IMG/VR virus record: IMGVR_UViG_2778261179_000015
Span: 1 to 9,054 of that record
Length of the DNA stretch: 9,054 nucleotides
Strand: one strand, 5' to 3'
Origin: a virus
Lineage: Duplodnaviria; Heunggongvirae; Uroviricota; Caudoviricetes
Part shown: in pieces, positions 1-9,054 of the stretch
Position numbering within the stretch: the first letter of the stretch is position 1
Layout: every line of letters begins with the position of its first letter
Position numbers and translations under genes: made by a program
The notes under the pieces: generated by a model
Told to the model about the DNA's origin: nothing
Seen by the model: the letters and a program-made list of their open reading frames with translations, nothing else
Databases searched by the model: none

Positions 1-1239
1 ATGAGCAGCGCAATTCATAGACTTAGCGACACTCTTTTACGAAAATTAAGCGGATCACCAACCACAAAAAACGCCTTTTTTAATGACGGTGGCAATCTTA
101 GCGTAAGACATTCCACCAGCGGCCTGTTAACCTGGTATTTCACTTACAGGGCCGGAACTGGCAGGCAGGTATCACCGGAACGCCTGAGACTGGGCAACTA
201 TCCCGATCTGAGCCTGAAAGCAGCCAGGGAAAAAGCGGCACAGTGTCGCGCCTGGCTGGCGGAGGGGAAAAATCCACGCCATGAGCTTAATCACACAGTG
301 CAGGAAGCGTTAGCCCCCGTGACGGTTAAGGACGCGCTCACTTACTGGCTTGAGTCGTATGCGAAGGAAAAGCGCACTGACCACGAATCACTGAAAAGCC
401 GTATCAATAAGCACATAATCAGCCAGATTGGTGCTATGCCGCTGGATAAATGCGAGCTACGCCACTGGCTGGCCTGTTTTGACCAGCTTGCTAAGCGTAA
501 TCCGGTATCAGCCGGCTTTTTGTTGCAGGTATGCAAACAGGCGCTTAAGTACTGCCGTAAACGTCGCTACGCCGTCAGTAACGTTCTTGATGATATGGTC
601 GTAGGTGATGTGGGAAAAAAAGCAGAAATAAGCGAGCGAGTGCTAACAAACAAGGAGCTTGGCGAGCTACTCCGCGCACTGGATGAAAAAATTTTCCCGC
701 CGTACTACAGCGCTTTAATTCGCCTTCTGATTGTCTTCGGATGCCGTACCACTGAGCTAAGACGCTCCGAGGTTCGGGAATGGGATTTTAAAGAAATGCT
801 CTGGACTGTGCCGAAAGAACACAGCAAAACGAAGGTAGCAATATTCAGGCCAATACCGGAAGCGATCTTGCCGTTCGTCATGAAGCTGGTGGAGCAGAAC
901 AGGCACACGGGCTTATTGCTTGGAGAACTGAAAGGGCAATCATCCGTAGCAGAGTACGGAAGAACGGCACACAGACGCATTAATCAAGCCCCCTGGTCGT
1001 TGCACGACATCCGGCACACATTTACAACCATGCTGAACGATTTAGGCGTGGATCCGCATATTGTCGAACAGCTTACTGCCCACCAGATGCCAGGAATGCA
1101 ACGCGTCTATAACCACTCCCGTTATCTCGATGCAAAGCGTGACGCTCTTAATCTATGGGTAGACCGTCTCGAGCTTCTCCAGAACAATGATGAAAAAATC
1201 GTTGTTATGACCCCGCGAATTTACCCCCAAAATTCTTGA
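1..1239 (+). CDS. int: Tyrosine integrase, P4-type (N-terminal arm-binding domain plus catalytic domain)
   Basis: 412-aa ORF. The N-terminal segment (LTWYFTYRAGTGRQVSPERLRLGNYPDLSLKAAREKAAQCRAWLAEGKNP) matches the pattern of P4-family integrase N-terminal domains. The C-terminus carries the tyrosine-recombinase motifs HDIRHTF and VYNHSRYLD with the catalytic Tyr. The ATG sits at window position 1, so upstream att/tRNA context is not visible. Confidence 0.9.
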   Translation: MSSAIHRLSDTLLRKLSGSPTTKNAFFNDGGNLSVRHSTSGLLTWYFTYRAGTGRQVSPERLRLGNYPDLSLKAAREKAAQCRAWLAEGKNPRHELNHTVQEALAPVTVKDALTYWLESYAKEKRTDHESLKSRINKHIISQIGAMPLDKCELRHWLACFDQLAKRNPVSAGFLLQVCKQALKYCRKRRYAVSNVLDDMVVGDVGKKAEISERVLTNKELGELLRALDEKIFPPYYSALIRLLIVFGCRTTELRRSEVREWDFKEMLWTVPKEHSKTKVAIFRPIPEAILPFVMKLVEQNRHTGLLLGELKGQSSVAEYGRTAHRRINQAPWSLHDIRHTFTTMLNDLGVDPHIVEQLTAHQMPGMQRVYNHSRYLDAKRDALNLWVDRLELLQNNDEKIVVMTPRIYPQNS

Positions 1240-1280
1240 CAAATTACGGCTGTTTTTTCTTTAAGAGATTACAGCCGTGA

Positions 1281-1320
1281 ATAGATCTTAGAATATCGGG
1301 GAATATCTGCAAATATCTTC
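1281..1320. repeat. Tandem 10-bp direct repeats (RAATATC core) in the int-alpA intergenic region; possible regulator binding sites
   Basis: gaatatcggg / gaatatctgc / aaatatcttc at 1291, 1301 and 1311, preceded by a degenerate copy atagatctta at 1281. The 10-bp phasing puts the sites on one helix face. They lie in a 420-bp AT-rich intergenic region. Confidence 0.35.
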
Positions 1321-1660
1321 TCTTTATATGTGTCAACTATCGAAAAAAATTGAAATGTCTTCTTCTGAACTTTTATTCTCTGTTTCTTGATTGTTCCAAC
1401 ACTTGATGGTTTATCTATTTGTTTTTAATGAGATAATTCAAGCGTAATGCCAAGTAACGACATTTTTTGTTGCATCGCTTAAAAACTCGTGACACGATTT
1501 TAAACACTAACGAGCTTCTACGAACCTTAGCGAACAAAGCCTTTAGCAAGGTTGTGTTTTTAATTTAAGAGGTGAAAAAAGAATCTAAGTAATATCCGAT
1601 CTCATATATCTACAGCTAAGAGAAAAGTTTATATACGTAATTTTTTATGTAGGTTTTTGT

Positions 1661-1870
1661 ATGCGTGAAATAAATGAAGATCGCGTAATCCGTGAGGATG
1701 AATGTCGTAAGTTAACTGGAGTGTGTCGCACTACACGCTATGAACTGGAGAAAAAAGGGAATTTCCCGTCACGCCGTAATCTGGGCGGTCGTTCTGTAGG
1801 TTGGCTGCTGTCCGAGGTTATGGAATGGGTTAAAAGCCGGGATCGCATTAATTCAGGCAAGGCAGCGTAA
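1661..1870 (+). CDS. alpA: AlpA-family transcriptional regulator / excisionase-like HTH protein
   Basis: 69-aa ORF. The sequence ECRKLTGVCRTTRYELEKKGNFPSRRNLGGRSVGWLLSEVMEWV fits the AlpA (CP4-57 regulatory protein) HTH pattern, and its position just downstream of a P4-type integrase is typical. A weak SD (agg) lies 7 nt upstream of the ATG. Confidence 0.85.
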   Translation: MREINEDRVIREDECRKLTGVCRTTRYELEKKGNFPSRRNLGGRSVGWLLSEVMEWVKSRDRINSGKAA

Positions 1871-1885
1871 AGGGGGGCATATGAC

Positions 1886-1920
1886 ACATAAAACAAAGGC
1901 GACCCGGATCAGAGGTCGCC
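1886..1920 (-). terminator. Putative intrinsic terminator for the minus-strand RHH gene
   Basis: Perfect 7-bp stem GGCGACC (1898-1904) / GGTCGCC (1914-1920) with a 9-nt loop. On the minus strand it is followed by TTTGTTTTATGTG. It sits in the gap between the convergent alpA and RHH genes. Confidence 0.45.
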
Positions 1921-2011
1921 AGTGGGAATACACTAAACATAAGCCCAGCCATCATAGCGATTTGCTGGCTGGTGGGCAATGTGATCAGTGTGCTGGCTTG
2001 CTGGTTGGCTG

Positions 2012-2185
2012 TCAGCCTTTGGGCTCGATACCGCGCTGTTGTAATTCTTTGCGGAGTATTCGTTTAATCCAAGTAGCTAATGAGGTGTCGCCGTCTGCCT
2101 TGGCTGCTTCCTCAAGTTGCGCTCTAAATTCTTCTGGTAGTCGCATTTGGTATGGTGGCGATCGTTTCTCTAATGGTGTTGACAT
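2012..2185 (-). CDS. Arc/MetJ-type ribbon-helix-helix DNA-binding protein (putative element repressor)
   Basis: Hand-translated minus-strand ORF of 57 aa: MSTPLEKRSPPYQMRLPEEFRAQLEEAAKADGDTSLATWIKRILRKELQQRGIEPKG. It is below the length cutoff of the ORF track. The segment PYQMRLPEEFRAQLEEAAKADG has the beta-strand/helix signature of Arc-family RHH proteins. SD AAGGG lies 8 nt upstream, an in-frame stop lies immediately upstream of the ATG, and the start codon abuts a palindromic operator. Confidence 0.75.
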   Translation of the reverse strand: MSTPLEKRSPPYQMRLPEEFRAQLEEAAKADGDTSLATWIKRILRKELQQRGIEPKG

Positions 2186-2225
2186 GGTAATTACCCTTAA
2201 TTACTATAGTTACATGGTAATTACC
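2182..2225. promoter_or_regulatory. Divergent promoter/operator region: two copies of the palindrome GGTAATTACC in a 14-bp direct repeat, flanking the palindrome ACTATAGT
   Basis: ACATGGTAATTACC occurs at 2182-2195 and 2212-2225, 30 bp centre to centre. Each copy contains the perfect 10-bp palindrome GGTAATTACC. ACTATAGT (2203-2210) is itself palindromic and includes a TATAGT -10-like hexamer. TTACCATT half-site repeats follow at 2221-2240. The region lies between the RHH gene start and the downstream + operon. Confidence 0.55.
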
Positions 2226-2321
2226 ATTGTACTTACCATTACACAAAAAACAACGCCCCGCACTGTAGGAGCAGTAACGGGGCGTCTAACCACCAACGAT
2301 AGCAGAAGTATCGAGGTCGCT

Positions 2322-2525
2322 ATGAGAAATCATACCACACACCCGCAAGGGCGGGATTCGCACAACCTGAATAAATACATCTGGCGTTTTATCGCCCTGA
2401 GCACGGCACAACCGCGCGTGATTACCATTGAGGCCAGCAGCGAACAGGAAGCACGCCAGCAATCCCCGGCTGGCTGCGTGATGGTATTCGCCGCCCGTAT
2501 TCGTCAGGGGGTATGCCATGCCTGA
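2322..2525 (+). CDS. Small protein, possibly Icd-like (host cell division inhibitor family); first gene of the early/replication operon
   Basis: 68-aa ORF taken from the in-frame ATG at 2322 inside the 1881-2525 ORF-track entry. SD GAGG lies 5 nt upstream. Its stop overlaps the next start (ATGCCTGA). The family assignment is a recollection of small proteins annotated Icd-like beside alpA in P4-like prophages and was not verified. Confidence 0.45.
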   Translation: MRNHTTHPQGRDSHNLNKYIWRFIALSTAQPRVITIEASSEQEARQQSPAGCVMVFAARIRQGVCHA

Positions 2526-2838
2526 TATGTCAAATTACCAGTACCTGATTAATCCGCATTTTAACTGTGAGCATGATATTGCTAAAAAGGTTTATTCCGC
2601 TGCGGATGGGGCTACTGACAATATATCAATGGCTGTTGCGTCAATTGGTAGCCTGATGTGGCATGCGTCAGAAAATAAGGACTATGACGAAAAGGCTATG
2701 CGCATTGATATGGGTAATATCGGTTTGTTACTGGCAATGCTTGGGCAGTTTGATATTTCGTTACGGTGCACCATTGAAAATGCCACAGATGCATTAAATG
2801 CCATAAAGAAAGCGAATACTGATTCAAATCGGGGATAA
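2518..2838 (+). CDS. Hypothetical protein (106 aa), function unknown
   Basis: Strong SD AGGGGG 6 nt upstream. Translationally coupled to the upstream gene by an 8-nt overlap. No recognisable motif. Confidence 0.6.
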   Translation: MPDMSNYQYLINPHFNCEHDIAKKVYSAADGATDNISMAVASIGSLMWHASENKDYDEKAMRIDMGNIGLLLAMLGQFDISLRCTIENATDALNAIKKANTDSNRG

Positions 2839-2844
2839 ATAATC

Positions 2845-3144
2845 ATGAGAACATATTTATCTGGCTTGACTGCCAGCGGTTATGCACACCCCAAAATTAT
2901 CCCCGGCGCTATTTATCTGGATAAGAACGGTAACAGAGTAACGGTAAAAGAACTGATGTTTGACCGTGTGTATTTTATTCGTGATGGCTATTCATTTCAT
3001 AGTTCGCTGAACGTGGAGATCTTTATTAGCAGATTCAGGCGGGAAATCCCGCTTTCCAGAAATAACCATGTGTCACGTGTGGATGTGGATAAAAAACTAC
3101 AGGAACTGAAAAACATGATTGCCGCGTGGAGAGAGCAGAAATGA
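2845..3144 (+). CDS. Hypothetical protein (99 aa), function unknown
   Basis: SD GGGGA upstream. Its stop overlaps the replication gene start in an ATGA arrangement. No recognisable motif. Confidence 0.6.
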   Translation: MRTYLSGLTASGYAHPKIIPGAIYLDKNGNRVTVKELMFDRVYFIRDGYSFHSSLNVEIFISRFRREIPLSRNNHVSRVDVDKKLQELKNMIAAWREQK

Positions 3145-5264
3145 AAAAAGCGCCAAATTTAAAACACCAGCCGCGTGACAAAATGACGGAAGTCATCATT
3201 TTTGCGGGTAGTGATGCGTGGGCACATGCGAAACAGTGGCAGGAACAGGACGGGCGACTGGCTGGCGATAACGTGCCACCTGTCTGGCTTGGAGAGCAAC
3301 AACTTGCCGAACTGGACAACCTGCAAATCGTACCGGACGGACGCTATCGCGTGCGTCTCTATCAGGCGGGGTTATTGCGTCCGGGGCTTGTTAATACCAT
3401 CGGGCAGAAACTGGCAGTGGCAGGTGTCAGGGATGCTGATTATTACCCTGAAGGAATGCACAGCCAGAAACGGGAGAACTGGCGCGAATATCTGGAACGT
3501 GAACGGGCAGAGCAGGCGGAAAAGAAAAAGGTAGTTGAACTGCCTGTAAAGAAAAAAGAGCCATGCTATCAGGATGATGAATTAAAGCCCCGCGTTGAAA
3601 GTCGCGTCGATGGTGTTTTCTGGGTAACGCCCAAAGTGGATAAGCAGTCAGGCGAAATTATCCGGCCTGAGACGTGGTTATGTTCTCCGCTTGAACTACT
3701 GGGAACGGGGACGATCGGTAAAGAACATTACCGCGTGATGCGCTGGAAAAAATCAGCAAACCATGAAGTCATCACAATGGCGATCCCGTGTGGTGGCATT
3801 GGCGACCGTGACGGCTGGCGGTTACTTAAAGATCACGGGCTGAACGTGACAACCAACGGCAAATACAGGGCAATCCTGGCGGACTGGATGCAGTTAAGCG
3901 GAAGCCATGAGGAATGGCAGTTAAGCACAACAACGGGCTGGCATTTTGGCGCGTACATCATGCCGGACGGTTCGATCATTGGTGATTCTGAAAAACCGAT
4001 CCTGTTTACCGGAAAAAGCGCCGCGATTAACGGTTATTCCGTGGCGGGTACGGCGGAGGGCTGGCGCGAGAGTGTGGCGCGGCTGGCTGGCGGTAATGCC
4101 TCAATGATGCTGGGTGTGGCAACGTCACTGGCAGCGCCTTTAATTGGCCTTGTGGGTGCTGACGGCTTCGGGGTGCATCTTTTCGAACAGTCATCGGCAG
4201 GTAAGACCACCACGCAGAACATCGCATCAAGTTTATGGGGAGAGCCGGACGCACAACGGCTTACCTGGTACGGAACGGCGTTAGGTATCGCCAACGAGGC
4301 AGAGGCGCACAACGACGGGCTGTTACCCCTGGATGAAATAGGCCAGGCCGGAAACGCGCGGGAGGTGTCCACGTCAGCCTATACGTTGTTTAACGGCTCC
4401 GGGAAATTACAGGGGGCGAAGGACGGCGGCAACCGGGAGATAAAACACTGGCGCACGGTGGCAATCAGCACCGGAGAAATGGACGTTGAGACATTCCTCA
4501 AAACGGAGGGGATAAAAGTCAAAGCGGGGCAGCTTGTCCGCCTGCTTAACGTTCCGATGGAAAAAGCCACGCACTTTCACGAATACAGCACCGGAAAGGC
4601 GCACGCAGACGCGTTAAAGGATGCCTGGACAGAAAATCACGGGGCAGCGGGTCGTGAGTGGGTTAAATGGCTGGCAGGCCACCAGCAGGAGGCAAAGGAT
4701 ACGGTAAGGGAATGCCGCGAACGGTGGCGCAACCTGATACCGGAGAGCTACGGCGAGCAGGTCCACCGCGTGGGTGAGCGTTTCGCCATACTGGAGGCCG
4801 CGCTTGTGCTTTCCGGTCATGTAACTGGCTGGGCCGCGCAGGAATGCCGGGACGCAATACAGCATAACTTTAATGCCTGGGTGAAGGAGTTCGGCACGGG
4901 TAACAGGGAATTTAAACAGATGGTTGAACAGGCTGAGGCGTTTTTGTCGTCGTTCGGGTTCAGTCGATACCTTCCTTACCCAAACAGTGATGAACGTGAT
5001 TTACCGATTAAAGACCTTGCCGGATACAGAAAGGGGAGTATCAGAAATGAAGATGATGAGTTCCGTTTTTACACGTTTCCTCATGTGTTTGAGGGGGAGA
5101 TCGCACAGGGATTTAACCCGTCCCACTTTGCCCGCGCGTTGAGTGCTGCCGGAATGCTGGAAGCGGGTAACGATCGCCGTTACAAGAAAAAGGCTCTCGG
5201 CAAAATTGGGGGGAAGCAGCATGTTTTTTACGTGCTGATGTTCCAGCCTGAGGCAGAAGATTAA
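3141..5264 (+). CDS. Replication initiator, putative primase/helicase-type P-loop NTPase (Pri-Rep-like)
   Basis: About 707 aa from the ATG at 3141, with SD GGAGAG 7 nt upstream. The ORF track begins at a GTG at 3126. Walker A motif EQSSAGKTTTQN and Walker B-like motif GLLPLDEIG are present. Size, position after alpA and before an iteron array match satellite replication proteins. Confidence 0.8.
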   Translation: MKKAPNLKHQPRDKMTEVIIFAGSDAWAHAKQWQEQDGRLAGDNVPPVWLGEQQLAELDNLQIVPDGRYRVRLYQAGLLRPGLVNTIGQKLAVAGVRDADYYPEGMHSQKRENWREYLERERAEQAEKKKVVELPVKKKEPCYQDDELKPRVESRVDGVFWVTPKVDKQSGEIIRPETWLCSPLELLGTGTIGKEHYRVMRWKKSANHEVITMAIPCGGIGDRDGWRLLKDHGLNVTTNGKYRAILADWMQLSGSHEEWQLSTTTGWHFGAYIMPDGSIIGDSEKPILFTGKSAAINGYSVAGTAEGWRESVARLAGGNASMMLGVATSLAAPLIGLVGADGFGVHLFEQSSAGKTTTQNIASSLWGEPDAQRLTWYGTALGIANEAEAHNDGLLPLDEIGQAGNAREVSTSAYTLFNGSGKLQGAKDGGNREIKHWRTVAISTGEMDVETFLKTEGIKVKAGQLVRLLNVPMEKATHFHEYSTGKAHADALKDAWTENHGAAGREWVKWLAGHQQEAKDTVRECRERWRNLIPESYGEQVHRVGERFAILEAALVLSGHVTGWAAQECRDAIQHNFNAWVKEFGTGNREFKQMVEQAEAFLSSFGFSRYLPYPNSDERDLPIKDLAGYRKGSIRNEDDEFRFYTFPHVFEGEIAQGFNPSHFARALSAAGMLEAGNDRRYKKKALGKIGGKQHVFYVLMFQPEAED

Positions 5265-5287
5265 CCCCCTGTGTGAGGTGAAAAGTT

Positions 5288-5602
5288 GCGGGTTATGCGG
5301 GTTACTCTGTGTATAAGTGCATTAACTGCATGAATAAAAAGGAAATCAATAACCCGCACGTAACCCGCAAAACGGCAGTTATAACCCGCAAAAGTGCGAT
5401 TATAACCCGCAGATGAATAACAGGAAGTGACAGCAAACAGCCACGCGTAACCCGCAGAAAAAACCCCGTTTGCGGGTTATTTTGAGCATTTTGCGGGTTA
5501 CGCCACGGCTAAACAGTAAACAGTTAATTTTGTAATGTATTGATATTAAGGAATAAAAAATACTTAGCAAGCGAAGATAACCCGCTAACCCGCATAACCC
5601 GC
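5288..5602. repeat. Replication origin: array of about 12 iterons (R)TAACCCGC / GCGGGTTA(Y) flanking AT-rich segments
   Basis: GCGGGTTA orientation at 5288-5296, 5297-5305, 5472-5480 and 5493-5501. TAACCCGC orientation at 5349-5357, 5361-5368, 5381-5389, 5402-5410, 5447-5455, 5577-5585, 5586-5593 and 5594-5602. AT-rich stretches lie at 5505-5576 and 5607-5626. The array starts immediately downstream of the replication gene stop. Confidence 0.75.
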
Positions 5603-5644
5603 ACTGTTTTGTATATATATATACGAAAAATTGAGATCTGAACT

Positions 5645-5887
5645 ATGAAGGCAAACCGCAAACAACCACACTACCGCGCTATTGACCTTACAGAGCACTG
5701 GCTGAGAGTGGCGATAAAAATCATCGACCGAAACACGGGGGAAGGATATGCAAAAGCACATCCCGAACTGATAAGCGCATTCATGACAACGGCAGCTGCA
5801 AACTTTGCCACGTTGACAGAACGGGAGATTGCCGAAGCGGAACAGGTGACAACCATCAACGTTAAAACCGGAGAGCAGACAGCATGA
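5645..5887 (+). CDS. Hypothetical protein (80 aa), function unknown; co-operonic with ssb
   Basis: ORF directly after the origin. Its stop overlaps the ssb start (ATGA at 5884-5887). No recognisable motif. Confidence 0.5.
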   Translation: MKANRKQPHYRAIDLTEHWLRVAIKIIDRNTGEGYAKAHPELISAFMTTAAANFATLTEREIAEAEQVTTINVKTGEQTA

Positions 5888-6306
5888 CAGCACAGATAGC
5901 GGCTTACGGACGGCTGGTGGCTGACCCGCAGTTAAAGACCACCAGCAAGGGTACACAAATGGCGATGGCTAGTATGGCGGTCCCCCTTCCGTGCAGCCAG
6001 GCAGATGACGGAACGGCGATGATGTGGTTATCCGTCCTGGCGTTTGGCAGACAGGCCGACGCACTGGCAAAACACCACAAAGGCGAACTGGTGAGCGTGG
6101 CGGGTAACATGCAGGTAAGCCAGTGGACAGGCCAGAACGGCGAAACGCGGCAGGGCTGGCAGGTTATCGCAGACAGCGTGATCAGTGCGCGAACAGCGCG
6201 ACCGGGCGGCAAAAAAGGCCAGCAGGGGCAGGCCACTGACGCACTGAACAGGGCAAAACAACAGTCGGGGAATGATGATCCGTACGGCGATAATATACCG
6301 TTTTAA
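5884..6306 (+). CDS. ssb: Single-stranded DNA-binding protein (SSB) homolog
   Basis: 140 aa. The OB-fold core aligns by eye with E. coli SSB (IAAYGRLVADPQLKTTSKGTQMAMASMAV and WLSVLAFGRQADALAKHHKGELVSVAGNMQVSQWTGQNGETRQGWQV). A Gly/Gln-rich linker is followed by the C-terminal tip DDPYGDNIPF, resembling the SSB acidic tail ending DDDIPF. Confidence 0.8.
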   Translation: MTAQIAAYGRLVADPQLKTTSKGTQMAMASMAVPLPCSQADDGTAMMWLSVLAFGRQADALAKHHKGELVSVAGNMQVSQWTGQNGETRQGWQVIADSVISARTARPGGKKGQQGQATDALNRAKQQSGNDDPYGDNIPF

Positions 6307-6323
6307 ATTCTGCAAACAAAAAG

Positions 6324-6352
6324 ATGCCGGAAAAAAATAGATTTTCCGGCAT
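6324..6352. terminator. Stem-loop at the end of the ssb operon (possible terminator; the T-tract is on the minus strand)
   Basis: ATGCCGGAAAA (6324-6334) pairs with TTTTCCGGCAT (6342-6352) around a 7-nt loop. The plus strand has an A-tract before and no U-tract after. The minus strand has CTTTTTGTTTG after the stem. It separates the replication module from the capsid module. Confidence 0.4.
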
Positions 6353-6517
6353 GCTACATAAATCCCGACCAAAGGAAGTAAATACATTAACACGAATTAT
6401 CAGCACTGAAGTTGTCACGGCATATTTTATACAACATTGCACTTGGTTGCATGTATTCGCATAGCAGACATCGGTAATAGAATATATTCACAATTATTTG
6501 TAATGAATGTAAAGAGG

Positions 6518-7564
6518 ATGAGTATGGTTGACTTATATTCGCCTACACAGCTTGTGCAGGTGGCTAATGCTGAAGATGTGCAAAAAAAATTAAATGCGTT
6601 GTTTACCAGTTTGTTTTTCACTCGCTCGGTAATGTTTGAATCGAGAGACATTATTCTTGATACGATCGACGATCCAAATATCCCGATCGCGGCGTTTTGC
6701 TCTCCTATGGTGGGCAGTAAAGTTTCACGAGATGAGGGATACGAATCAAAAACAATTCGTCCAGGTTATATGAAGCCGAAAAGCAGCATTGATCCAAATA
6801 AGTTAGCTGTGCGCCCTGCTGGTGTGTCACCTGAGCAATACAATGCTTTTGGGGCGCGTAATATTAAAGTTAAACAGGCGATTGTAAATCAGGCTAAAGC
6901 TATTCGTGCACGTATTGAATGGCTTGCTGTTCAGGCAATCACAACGGGGAAAAATATCATTGAGGGCGATGGTATTGAACGTTATGAGCTGGACTGGAAT
7001 ATAAAACCACAAAATATCATCACTCAGTCTGGCGGTACTGAGTGGTCAGGTAAGGATAAAGAAACTTTTGATCCAAATGATGATATTGAGAGCTACGCAG
7101 AATTTAGTGAGGGCGTCACTAATATCATCATTATGGGTGGTAATGTATGGAAGAAATACCGTTCATTCAGAGCGATAAAAGAGGCTTTGGATACCCGTCG
7201 TGGTTCTAATTCCGAACTGGAAACGGCCCTTAAAGACCTTGGTGATTCGGTGAGTTTTAAAGGGTATATGGGCGATGTTGCGATTGTTGTTTACAGCGGG
7301 CGTTATACCGACGAGGACGGAACAGAAAAACATTTCCTTGATCCTGATTTGATGGTGCTTGGCAATACGGCTCTTCAGGGGATTGTCGCCTATGGCGGTA
7401 TTCAGGATCCGGAGCTAATCCGAATGGGGCTGACTAAAGCCGAACTTGCACCGAAAAACTATATTGTGCCTGGTGATCCGGCTATTGAATATGTGCAGAC
7501 ACATTCAGCACCACAGCCAATACCGGCCCGCATCAATCGTTTTGTTACCGTTCGCATTGGCTAA
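6518..7564 (+). CDS. Major capsid protein, phage lambda gpE-like (HK97-fold family)
   Basis: About 348 aa from MSMVDLYSPTQLVQ, which parallels the lambda gpE N-terminus MSMYTT. SD AAGAGG is immediately upstream. Extended similarity to recalled lambda gpE includes ITQSGGTEWS, KEALDTRRGSNSELETALKDLG and GDVAIVVYSG. The ORF track starts earlier at 6437, probably upstream of the true start. Confidence 0.85.
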   Translation: MSMVDLYSPTQLVQVANAEDVQKKLNALFTSLFFTRSVMFESRDIILDTIDDPNIPIAAFCSPMVGSKVSRDEGYESKTIRPGYMKPKSSIDPNKLAVRPAGVSPEQYNAFGARNIKVKQAIVNQAKAIRARIEWLAVQAITTGKNIIEGDGIERYELDWNIKPQNIITQSGGTEWSGKDKETFDPNDDIESYAEFSEGVTNIIIMGGNVWKKYRSFRAIKEALDTRRGSNSELETALKDLGDSVSFKGYMGDVAIVVYSGRYTDEDGTEKHFLDPDLMVLGNTALQGIVAYGGIQDPELIRMGLTKAELAPKNYIVPGDPAIEYVQTHSAPQPIPARINRFVTVRIG

Positions 7565-7573
7565 GGGGGAGCA

Positions 7574-7915
7574 ATGGCTACTCATTACACTGAACTCATG
7601 GCTGGCACTGAAGCACTGGTGACTACGCTGGGGATATTTTCAGCTAATAAAGGGGTAATTCCTGCATTTACGCCACTGATGCAGGAAGATGCAACAGGTG
7701 CACTGGTGGTATGGGATGGTTCGAGCGTAGGTAAAGCGGTTTATGTTTCCGCTGTACAAATCGACACAGCGAAAAAAACACAGGCACAGGTTTATAAGAC
7801 AGGTGTTTTAAATGTTGATGCTCTGAACTGGCCTGAGTCTGTAAAAGAACTGTCGGCAAAGGTTGCCGCGTTTGTTGGCTCAGGTATTTCTGTTCAGCCG
7901 CTGGCTCGTGTGTAA
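7574..7915 (+). CDS. Head decoration protein, phage lambda gpD-like
   Basis: 113 aa. The segment TPLMQEDATGALVVWDGSSVGKAVYVSAVQIDTAKKTQAQVYKTGVLNVDALNWPE parallels recalled lambda gpD (TPLMLDTSSRKLVAWDG...FYKSG...LWPE). SD AGGGGGA upstream; lies 10 nt after the capsid gene stop. Confidence 0.8.
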   Translation: MATHYTELMAGTEALVTTLGIFSANKGVIPAFTPLMQEDATGALVVWDGSSVGKAVYVSAVQIDTAKKTQAQVYKTGVLNVDALNWPESVKELSAKVAAFVGSGISVQPLARV

Positions 7916-7926
7916 AGGGGGATACA

Positions 7927-8310
7927 ATGCAGAATCATTACAATGACCTTAAGCCAATTGCCGAAATGATGTATCCGGATCCAGCAGTAGAGGAATTAAA
8001 GGCTATTGCTGACAAAATGCGTTTAAGTGAACGCCTTGTTGATATGAATCAGGTGATGGAACTTACTACCCTTAGCCGTCGCACATTGCTAAACCTTGAG
8101 GCTCGCGGAGAGTTCCCCGAACGCGTACAGGTTACGGAAGGGCGTAAGGCCTGGTATTTAAGTGAAGTGATCGACTGGATAAACAATATTCCTCGATCTT
8201 CTGAATATTGCCGCGTACCTGTCCCAAAAAAGCCAGATGCGGCGCTATGCCTCAAGATTGAGCGTGTACGTCGCAATGCACGGGATGGTCGCTATAAGTT
8301 GATTGGTTGA
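7927..8310 (+). CDS. AlpA-type HTH domain protein (127 aa) with N- and C-terminal extensions; putative regulator or DNA-specificity factor
   Basis: The central segment MNQVMELTTLSRRTLLNLEARGEFPERVQVTEGRKAWYLSEVIDWINN matches the AlpA/excisionase-type HTH pattern and resembles the alpA product at 1661-1870. SD GGGGG 5 nt upstream. The gene ends about 25 bp before the cos core. Confidence 0.7.
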   Translation: MQNHYNDLKPIAEMMYPDPAVEELKAIADKMRLSERLVDMNQVMELTTLSRRTLLNLEARGEFPERVQVTEGRKAWYLSEVIDWINNIPRSSEYCRVPVPKKPDAALCLKIERVRRNARDGRYKLIG

Positions 8311-8335
8311 TGAAATTAGGGCCCGTTCTGGCTGG

Positions 8336-8400
8336 CGGGTCCTTTCCGGCGATCCGGTAGGCTACGGGGCGGCGACCTCGCGGGTTTTCGCTATTTATGA
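8336..8400. other. Lambda-type cohesive end site (cosQ-cosN), with the 12-nt cohesive-end sequence GGGCGGCGACCT at 8367-8378
   Basis: Window 8336-8366 (CGGGTCCTTTCCGGCGATCCGGTAGGCTACG) matches the recalled right end of the lambda genome (CGGGTCCTTTCCGGTGATCCGACAGGTTACG) with 4 mismatches. Window 8367-8400 (GGGCGGCGACCTCGCGGGTTTTCGCTATTTATGA) matches the first 34 nt of the lambda genome exactly. Similarity is lost downstream of 8400, in the presumptive cosB (8401-8500). Confidence 0.85.
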
Positions 8401-8511
8401 GCCTTTTTCGGGTGCTGGTGGTGGTTTTGTTGTTCGCTCTATCTCTATGAATAAAAAGGAAAAGATAAAGCCAATACACCAACCTGAAACATTACTTAAG
8501 TGGGGATATTG

Positions 8512-9054
8512 ATGAAATCGCACCTGATGAACAAAAAAAACATGGCGCAAAGCTGCCGTGTAAGTGCGACAGCGTTCGACAAGTGGGGAGTGACTCCCGT
8601 TGAACGTAAAGGCCGCGAGGCGTTTTATGATGTTGCCAGCGTAATAGACAATCGGGTTAGCAATGCAATTAACCAGATTACAGACGACAAAGGCGAGATT
8701 GATAATGATGAGCTTTTGCGAGTCAGGATCAGATTGCTGACAGCGCAGGCGGAGGCGCAGGAGCTTAAAAACGAGCGCGAACGCGGCGATGTGATTAGTA
8801 CGGAATTTTGTATATATGCGCTTTCAAAACTGGCGAGTCAGATTTCTTCAATCATGGGCAGCCTGCCGCTTACTATGCAAAGGAGCTTCCCACAGATGAC
8901 CCCCGCCATGCTGGATGGCCTGAAAAAAGAAGTTGTCAGAGCCTGTAACGCATGCACAAAACTTGATGAAAACATCCCGCGAATGCTGTCCGATTATCTG
9001 ATGGAAACTACCGGAAATGTGCCTGATAAGTTTCAGCCGGATAAAGACAAGTAA
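8512..9054 (+). CDS. terS: Terminase small subunit, phage lambda Nu1-like
   Basis: About 180 aa from the ATG at 8512, with SD GGGGA upstream. Alternative starts exist at 8527 and 8542, and the ORF track begins at a GTG at 8500. The C-terminal two thirds (RLLTAQAEAQELKNERERGDVISTEFCIYALSKLASQISSIMGSLPLTMQRSFP...LDENIPRMLSDYLMETTG) parallels recalled lambda Nu1 (RLTRAQADAQELKNARDSAEVVETAFCTFVLSRIAGEIASILDGLPLSVQRRFP...LDELIPGLLSEYIEQSG). The N-terminal DNA-binding region is more diverged. The gene lies immediately downstream of cos, as in lambda. Confidence 0.85.
   Translation: MKSHLMNKKNMAQSCRVSATAFDKWGVTPVERKGREAFYDVASVIDNRVSNAINQITDDKGEIDNDELLRVRIRLLTAQAEAQELKNERERGDVISTEFCIYALSKLASQISSIMGSLPLTMQRSFPQMTPAMLDGLKKEVVRACNACTKLDENIPRMLSDYLMETTGNVPDKFQPDKDK

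Follow-up and report, generated by a model that had tools for sequence, protein, structure and literature searches.

Regulation in Gram-negative phage-inducible chromosomal islands (PICIs) has so far been described with one regulator, AlpA. The satellite P4 encodes Vis, an AlpA-family protein that regulates the late promoters PLL and Psid, the latter driving the capsid-size/decoration operon sid-delta-psu. The homology of Vis and AlpA has been noted, and the canonical PICI AlpA is an autoregulating transcription activator (PMC6092414); typical E. coli PICIs are stated to have a single AlpA (PMC11773190). The stretch analysed here (the window; 9,054 nucleotides (nt), positions 1 to 9,054 of IMG/VR virus record IMGVR_UViG_2778261179_000015) belongs to the EcCICFT073 kind of Gram-negative PICI and is nearly complete, and the statement of a single AlpA is untrue of the widespread lineage that it represents. 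At the end of its capsid module the element encodes a second AlpA-family protein of 127 amino acids (aa). On the basis of comparative sequence evidence, this protein is proposed to be a dedicated regulator of the capsid operon, autoregulating and probably activating, analogous to P4 Vis; the probability of this reading is put at about 0.5.

The original prediction of a second AlpA-type helix-turn-helix (HTH) gene was correct. The open reading frame (ORF) at 7927–8310 (+ strand) encodes 127 aa, begins 11 nt after the stop codon of the decoration gene behind a strong Shine-Dalgarno sequence (GGGGGA, 7917–7922), and is annotated in RefSeq. Its residues 36–85 match the Pfam family PF05930 (Phage_AlpA) with 35 bits (cut-off 21, E = 1.3e-8, profile positions 2–51 of 51). 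The first AlpA had also been properly recognised as canonical: it has 69 aa, is encoded at 1661–1870 (+) beside int, on its 3' side, and matches Phage_AlpA with 59.5 bits. The 127-aa gene is carried by 398 of 5426 complete E. coli genomes (about 7%), and full-length orthologues with 57–95% identity, nearly all of 127 aa, occur in Enterobacter, Citrobacter, Klebsiella aerogenes, Salmonella, Pluralibacter, Kosakonia, Kluyvera, Scandinavium and Buttiauxella; more distant relatives (50–53% identity) were found in Serratia and one further contig. The gene is real and under purifying selection, with a whole-gene dN/dS of about 0.07–0.18. Between genera, the winged HTH (wHTH) shows a pN of 0.02–0.07 against saturated synonymous sites, and the extensions on both sides of it are faster-evolving yet constrained.

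In the AlphaFold 2 model the wHTH (residues 36–86) is confident, with a pLDDT of about 90. Outside it the model places N-terminal helices at residues 8–15 and 19–33, a proline-rich linker at 87–104 and a basic amphipathic C-terminal helix at 105–119; the tail contains the invariant residues P100, P103, L107, K110, R113 and R115. By superposition on solved excisionases the protein has the excisionase/MerR-like "putative DNA-binding domain" fold. The closest structure is the GIsul2 excisionase (8c3t), the only match of a phmmer search of the PDB, and the other structural relatives are RdfS, Xis and BldC. The extensions had been described as not recognisable, which holds for Pfam and for NCBIfam, where no family for the protein was found, but not for PHROG 2790 ("excisionase and transcriptional regulator"), which spans residues 11–109 with E = 2e-48; both extensions are conserved and predicted to be helical. 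The suggestion that profile searches might identify domains in them did not bear fruit: no distant relatives of the extensions were found among 1.84 billion representative proteins. Matches that extended past the wHTH as far as the C-terminal tail came from only three 50%-identity clusters (P0001, with a full-length match, and P0100 and P0104, whose matches began at profile positions 15 and 24), and the remaining matches at E ≤ 1e-10 were fragments of the family or the wHTH alone. The extensions are therefore specific to a narrow family. A 114-aa variant without the extreme N-terminus is common, and the N-terminus differs in other genera. The initiation region and first codons of the decoration gene (GGGGGAGCAATGGCTACTCATTACACTGAACT, 7565–7596) and of the 127-aa gene (GGGGATACAATGCAGAATCATTACAATGACCT, 7918–7949) are 72% identical over 32 nt.

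The protein belongs to the AlpA/excisionase wHTH family by sequence and fold, and is not the master AlpA, an Rpp or a small terminase subunit (TerS). It shares with the canonical AlpA, including that of EcCICFT073, the Pfam family, the wHTH and the kind of satellite, but it is only 32% identical to it over 56 aa and twice as long, having both extensions, and its gene ends the capsid module instead of lying beside int. The master regulators of PICIs are proteins of 60–75 aa encoded directly 3' of int, which agrees with neither the size nor the position found here. Like Vis, it is an AlpA-family satellite protein, and Vis regulates late promoters that include that of a capsid/decoration operon; Vis differs in being encoded beside int, in acting also as an excisionase and in having no comparable extensions, and its target sequences are not known to be related to the repeats described below. 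The GIsul2 excisionase and RdfS (8dgl) are recombination directionality factors (RDFs) linked to recombinases, whereas the 127-aa protein is linked to capsid genes and has an extra C-terminal helix. No Phage_Nu1 or TerS PHROG match was obtained for it. Nothing relevant on a second AlpA or on a late-zone HTH protein of PICIs was found in the literature searched, and within the PICI papers that were searchable the gene and its likely operator are previously undescribed. The alpA_1 gene of EcCIMP1 was rejected as a counterpart: it is another gene, encoded on the opposite strand and located at the far end of that element.

About 100 loci with the 127-aa gene were collected. A scan of the GTDB species representatives gave four loci only, and the comparative power comes mostly from IMG/VR and from single-protein look-ups. 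In every collected locus the order capsid gene, decoration gene, 127-aa gene is uninterrupted, and it is the companions of this trio that vary: the integrases and attachment sites (cspD/clpS, fis, or inside a prophage capsid gene), the primase (DUF927 or D5_N/DUF5906), and the first regulator (an AlpA of 69 aa or 75 aa, an HTH_17 protein or an unclassified protein). What follows 3' of cos varies as well: it may be a TerS of the window type, another that is 36% identical, Rpp-like genes or unrelated ORFs, or there may be nothing at all. In one Kluyvera element a lambda-type cosB is present without TerS or Rpp.

The main comparative evidence for a regulatory role lies in front of the capsid gene. 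A candidate operator of four direct repeats with a 10-bp period is found at 6427–6462 (+), with the units TTATAC (6427–6432), TTGCAC (6437–6442), TTGCAT (6447–6452) and TTCGCA(T) (6456–6462). The fourth unit doubles as a −35-like hexamer in the window, and together with the −10 hexamer TAGAAT (6478–6483, +) it makes up a putative capsid-operon promoter, TTCGCA-16-TAGAAT, with 9 of 12 matches; in most other genera the −10 is an extended −10, TGnTAnnAT. Alignment A3 (Escherichia, Pluralibacter, Kosakonia, Kluyvera, Superficieibacter and Cedecea) contains the array and the −10, with the block GTGATAGCATTAT at the latter, as its sole conserved intergenic blocks, and a 10-bp indel between the two that distinguishes E. 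coli from the other genera keeps the helical phase. The pattern is single in the window (chance expectation 0.01) and occurs once in each related element; in the 21-kb locus L001, both chromosomal flanks included, it is the only match of at least 15 of 18 positions.

About 100 bp 5' of the array, between ssb and the capsid module, a GC-rich hairpin follows an A-run at 6324–6352 (+; ATGCCGGAAAA-7-TTTTCCGGCAT, 11 of 11 positions complementary). An equivalent A-run and hairpin stand at the same place in L002, L007, L012–L015, L096 and L100. The hairpin is likely a terminator or insulator between the replication module and the capsid operon, and its presence in all lineages suggests a separate transcription unit for the capsid module. 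The array falls within a 5' extension of the capsid ORF in the mechanical ORF list, in which a TTG at 6437 was taken as the start of a 375-aa product; this start is spurious, as RefSeq and all homologues use the ATG at 6524 (346 aa).

Of 94 loci with the 127-aa gene, 91 have the array at a score of at least 15 of 18; none of 79 EcCICFT073-type loci, whose third gene is a different one, reaches this score. The three loci that fall short carry the most diverged orthologues, those of Buttiauxella and Serratia, and have phased variant units at the same position: in the Buttiauxella/Scandinavium group the unit is TTATAC, and the Serratia group has TTAGAC, TTGTGC or TTGTAC. In these lineages the recognition helix and wing of the 127-aa protein are also altered. 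The comparative pattern across the loci shows the array tracking this protein and not the canonical AlpA. In Pluralibacter and L100 the first regulator is an unrelated HTH_17 protein, yet the standard TTGCAC array is present with the same recognition helix in the 127-aa protein. Conversely, the Serratia canonical AlpA (62% identical overall to that of the window) has an almost identical recognition helix, and despite this the 127-aa orthologue is diverged (56%) and the array units differ (TTAGAC/TTGTGC). In EcCICFT073 an AlpA 59% identical to that of the window occurs with no array. A unique conserved array that stands at the promoter of its own operon and covaries with the protein is what would be expected of the operator of this regulator.

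It seems probable, at the level given above, that the 127-aa protein controls this promoter. The unit would run from the hairpin through the four phased repeats (6427–6462) and the −10 (6478–6483) to the capsid, decoration and 127-aa genes and cos. Several copies of the protein would bind the repeats head-to-tail, in the manner of excisionase-type wHTH proteins on phased direct repeats, with protein-protein contacts made by the N-terminal helices, the C-terminal amphipathic helix or both. RDF-type proteins are known to bind direct repeats one helical turn apart, and some of them regulate promoters too (PMC7498355, PMC11963761); RdfS oligomerises via an extra N-terminal helix (PMC11963761), which by analogy gives the extensions a plausible role. 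The bound copies would be centred near −44, −54 and −64, and in other genera also near −74, controlling RNA polymerase at a promoter with a weak or no −35 and, in most genera, an extended −10. This geometry and the place of the gene within the operon favour activation, and positive autoregulation would be the likeliest direction, primed by read-through of the upstream hairpin or by basal activity. The original prediction had offered a late activator of the capsid/terS operon as one of two alternatives, and the comparative evidence, with the covarying array at the promoter, favours it; that the protein binds there, in which direction it regulates and what its extensions do are what we infer from these patterns.

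Several points weigh against this proposal. The array and the gene are co-inherited as one module, so that their co-occurrence is confounded by shared ancestry, and the comparison is effectively one of two or three lineages with one. The fourth unit coincides with the −35 hexamer in the window, which could equally mean autorepression, and a regulator distal in its own operon requires basal or read-through expression to start. The confidence of the structural model is moderate outside the wHTH (pLDDT 48–78). Finally, TTGC-N6-TTGC is the box of the lambda CII protein (PMC4651098), and a CII-like activator of the helper or another factor could bind the array.

The last point leads to the alternative that survives best, although we consider it unlikely: the array would be bound by a helper CII-type activator or by the canonical AlpA, and the 127-aa protein would act elsewhere, for example on late or capsid genes of the helper. 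The units TTGCAC-N4-TTGCAC do conform to the CII box, and the promoters of CII likewise have direct tetranucleotide repeats with a 10-bp period and a poor −35 (PMC4651098); the array scan also matched lambda's own PRE site, at 14 of 18 positions. Sensing of helper proteins is common among satellites, and which helper factor induces alpA is not known (PMC6092414). The geometry, however, is unlike that of CII promoters: there are four units and not two, they are longer (6–7 bp, aTTGCAy), they are centred near −41 and further upstream instead of flanking the −35, and they become TTAGAC or TTATAC where the 127-aa protein has diverged, which is itself not of the CII family. The presence of the array is independent of the type of the canonical AlpA. 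Searches of the int–alpA region with PalpA and of the att flanks of L001 found no array; neither did those of lambda and the CFT073 lambdoid prophage, or of the helper sequence that flanks helper-embedded PICIs. Its absence from lambda and the CFT073 prophage indicates that it is not a helper-phage target in these two helpers.

The position of the gene between the decoration gene and cos, noted in the original prediction, is right, with cosQ (GGGTCCT, 8337–8343) starting 26 nt past the stop codon, and it had been taken to suggest a factor for cos recognition or for discriminating satellite from helper DNA. Such a packaging factor would bind cos on the side of cosQ, or would use its TerS-like wHTH to pair with the TerS of helper or satellite, and would act like Rpp or Ppi, aiding satellite packaging or blocking that of the helper. 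The proximity is real: the stop codon is at most 60 nt from cosQ in 91 of 99 informative loci. The gene is nevertheless unchanged beside at least four arrangements of cosB, TerS and Rpp: the satellite may have its own TerS, one that is 36% identical, Rpp-like genes, or neither TerS nor Rpp but a lambda-type cosB. The spacer between stop codon and cosQ is not conserved between genera, and in some lineages another gene intervenes, a Rpp-like ORF in Pluralibacter and a Lambda_tail_I-like ORF in a few E. coli elements, which puts 415 and 776 nt between the gene and cos. The candidate operator has no copy within 8311–8511, and a search for repeats or a conserved site from the stop codon to cosQ and across 8311–8511 revealed nothing beyond cosQ, cosN and the TerS-type-specific cosB blocks. 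Rpp lies 3' of cos in the terS slot, and no sequence similarity of the 127-aa protein to RppA was found, the direct BLAST comparison covering c1501 and the PDB search giving only 8c3t; the two kinds of protein co-occur in the Pluralibacter elements. Blocking helper TerS would moreover be self-defeating for elements such as L013, which have a helper-type cosB and no TerS. The cos role was thus not borne out, and we regard it as quite improbable; the more specific version, in which the protein mimics the DNA-binding domain of TerS and biases initiation or termination of packaging to satellite concatemers, appears still more doubtful, though if true it would be a third solution beside Rpp and Ppi. 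The position beside cos is most simply explained by the gene being the last one of a late operon.

The hairpins in front of cos bear on another alternative, a processive antiterminator of the Q-like kind exemplified by the AlpA of P. aeruginosa, whose N-terminal segment enters the RNA exit channel. The 127-aa protein would load at the array and allow RNA polymerase to read through the pre-cos hairpins into terS. The protein does have an N-terminal extension before its HTH, the array is promoter-proximal, and many loci have hairpins or terminators in the interval from the 127-aa gene to cosQ. In the window this hairpin (8318–8343, +, with cosQ as its 3' arm) is at best a weak terminator, with −16 kcal/mol and a z-score of −0.84, compared with z-scores of −3.9 in L015 and −1.9 in EcCICFT073 (L011), both of which have clear intrinsic terminators at this position. 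Because the hairpin of the window is weak, transcripts probably run across cos into terS, so that under the capsid-operon regulator proposed here read-through would also raise terS expression. A similarity to antiterminators like the AlpA of P. aeruginosa was not detected, and the common 114-aa variant does without the extreme N-terminus; we think antitermination very unlikely.

That the protein is a second excisionase for the satellite integrase is the least credible of these readings: its closest structure is an excisionase, PHROG 2790 carries that label and many RDFs are dual-function (PMC7498355, PMC11963761), but 6.7 kb separate the gene from int, and it is the canonical alpA beside int that is in the RDF position; the gene stays with the capsid module in combination with several unrelated integrases and att sites, although an RDF would be expected to co-vary with the integrase, and no sites in the att arms were found, the flanks of L001 having no copy of the array (assuming that the array is the binding site of the protein).

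The remaining features of the element conform to the EcCICFT073 kind. A tyrosine integrase gene (1–1239) and the canonical alpA are followed by a gene for a DUF4222 protein, a DUF927 primase gene (3126–5264) and ssb (5884–6306). The capsid module comprises the major capsid protein of the lambda gpE family (346 aa, 6524–7564, +), the head decoration protein of the HDPD/lambda gpD family (7574–7915, +) and the 127-aa protein, and beyond cos follows the satellite TerS of the Nu1 family (180 aa, 8512–9054, +, ATG at 8512). In a 98%-identical E. coli chromosome the element, of about 10 kb, lies between cspD/yljB and clpS. Directly 3' of the primase gene, at 5285–5603, the iteron ATAACCCGCA is repeated at least 12 times, with copies on both strands, and marks the replication origin. 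An interpretation of the promoter array as the replication origin was rejected, given these iterons and the different primase types among loci that share the array. The int–alpA interval holds three AATATCT/AATGTCT copies in helical phase (1301–1363, spacings 10 and 42 bp), where the canonical AlpA or the arm domain of the integrase may bind. A variable zone separates alpA from the replication genes and is the 3% of the window outside the match to its closest E. coli relative: the window has an Arc-like ORF of 57 aa there (2012–2185, − strand; phrog_228, E = 3e-7), and the relative has a YlcI/YnfO gene and an Icd-like gene. An Rfam scan of the window matched no RNA family.

Phage genomes align to the window at the cos stretch only, which is 95% identical to lambdoid phage cos; the 12-nt cohesive-end sequence of cosN (GGGCGGCGACCT, 8367–8378) is identical to that of lambda. 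The candidate satellite cosB blocks GCTGGTGGTGGTTTTGTTGTTC (8414–8435, +) and CAATACACCAACCTG (8472–8486, +) are conserved only with a TerS of the window type. They hold inverted GGTGG/CCACC-like cores, and their counterpart in EcCICFT073 is CACCACCACCAC. In the Pluralibacter gergoviae PICIs two Rpp-like genes flank cos, one of 131 aa before it (35% identical to RppA) and one of 139 aa after it (70%); these genes are at L007 9389–9780, L008 9033–9428, and L009 1848–2243 and 2392–2811. A relation of the window TerS to RppA was also considered and rejected, no similarity having been found.

Most of the related elements (L002–L005 and many IMG/VR loci, e.g. L017–L024) are helper-embedded PICIs in the major-capsid (E) gene of a prophage, with a truncated Phage_cap_E gene and then gpFI, FII, Z, U and V genes within about 2 kb; helper-embedded PICIs were described previously (PMC10111431). 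Apart from these elements, the phased TTGCA architecture recurs in phages. A scan of IMG/VR for three exact TTGCAY units gave more than 120 matches, mostly unrelated contigs with their own 10-bp TTGCA arrays, and the 127-aa gene was found in the PICI matches only, so the scan is uninformative on other targets. The unrelated viral contigs have 4–7 TTGCAC/TTGCAT units with a 10-bp period (L190, L196, L205, L208, L209, L216, L238, L262, L277, L280 and others), in some cases just 5' of sigma-70-like promoters (L216, L277).

In EcCICFT073 the capsid and decoration genes are 54% identical to those of the window, the third gene is c1501 and RppA follows cos. Despite its occupying the same slot, c1501 was rejected as a homologue of the 127-aa protein, since the two gave no BLAST alignment, and for this reason published data on the c1501::tetA insertion do not apply to the 127-aa protein. 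The gene (L011 25083–25496) served as a marker insertion site in published work. Over 83 aa its product shares 37% identity with the C-terminal (Nu3/scaffold) part of an S49 peptidase gene in the CFT073 lambdoid prophage (L010 40394–40627) and may thus be scaffold-like; BLASTP gave no match between c1501 and lambda Nu3 itself.

The 127-aa protein represents a variation on a well-known kind of regulator, and its packaging interpretation is without support from the comparisons made here. Lying beside cos need not imply a role in packaging, and a tempting inference is corrected in this respect. If the proposed regulation of the capsid operon is true, this would indicate a second tier of regulation in a PICI lineage that about 7% of complete E. 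coli genomes carry. Deletion of the capsid and decoration genes of EcCICFT073 changed neither transfer nor interference (PMC6092414), and a direct switch for the capsid module, as the 127-aa protein would then be, would offer a means to learn the role of this module.
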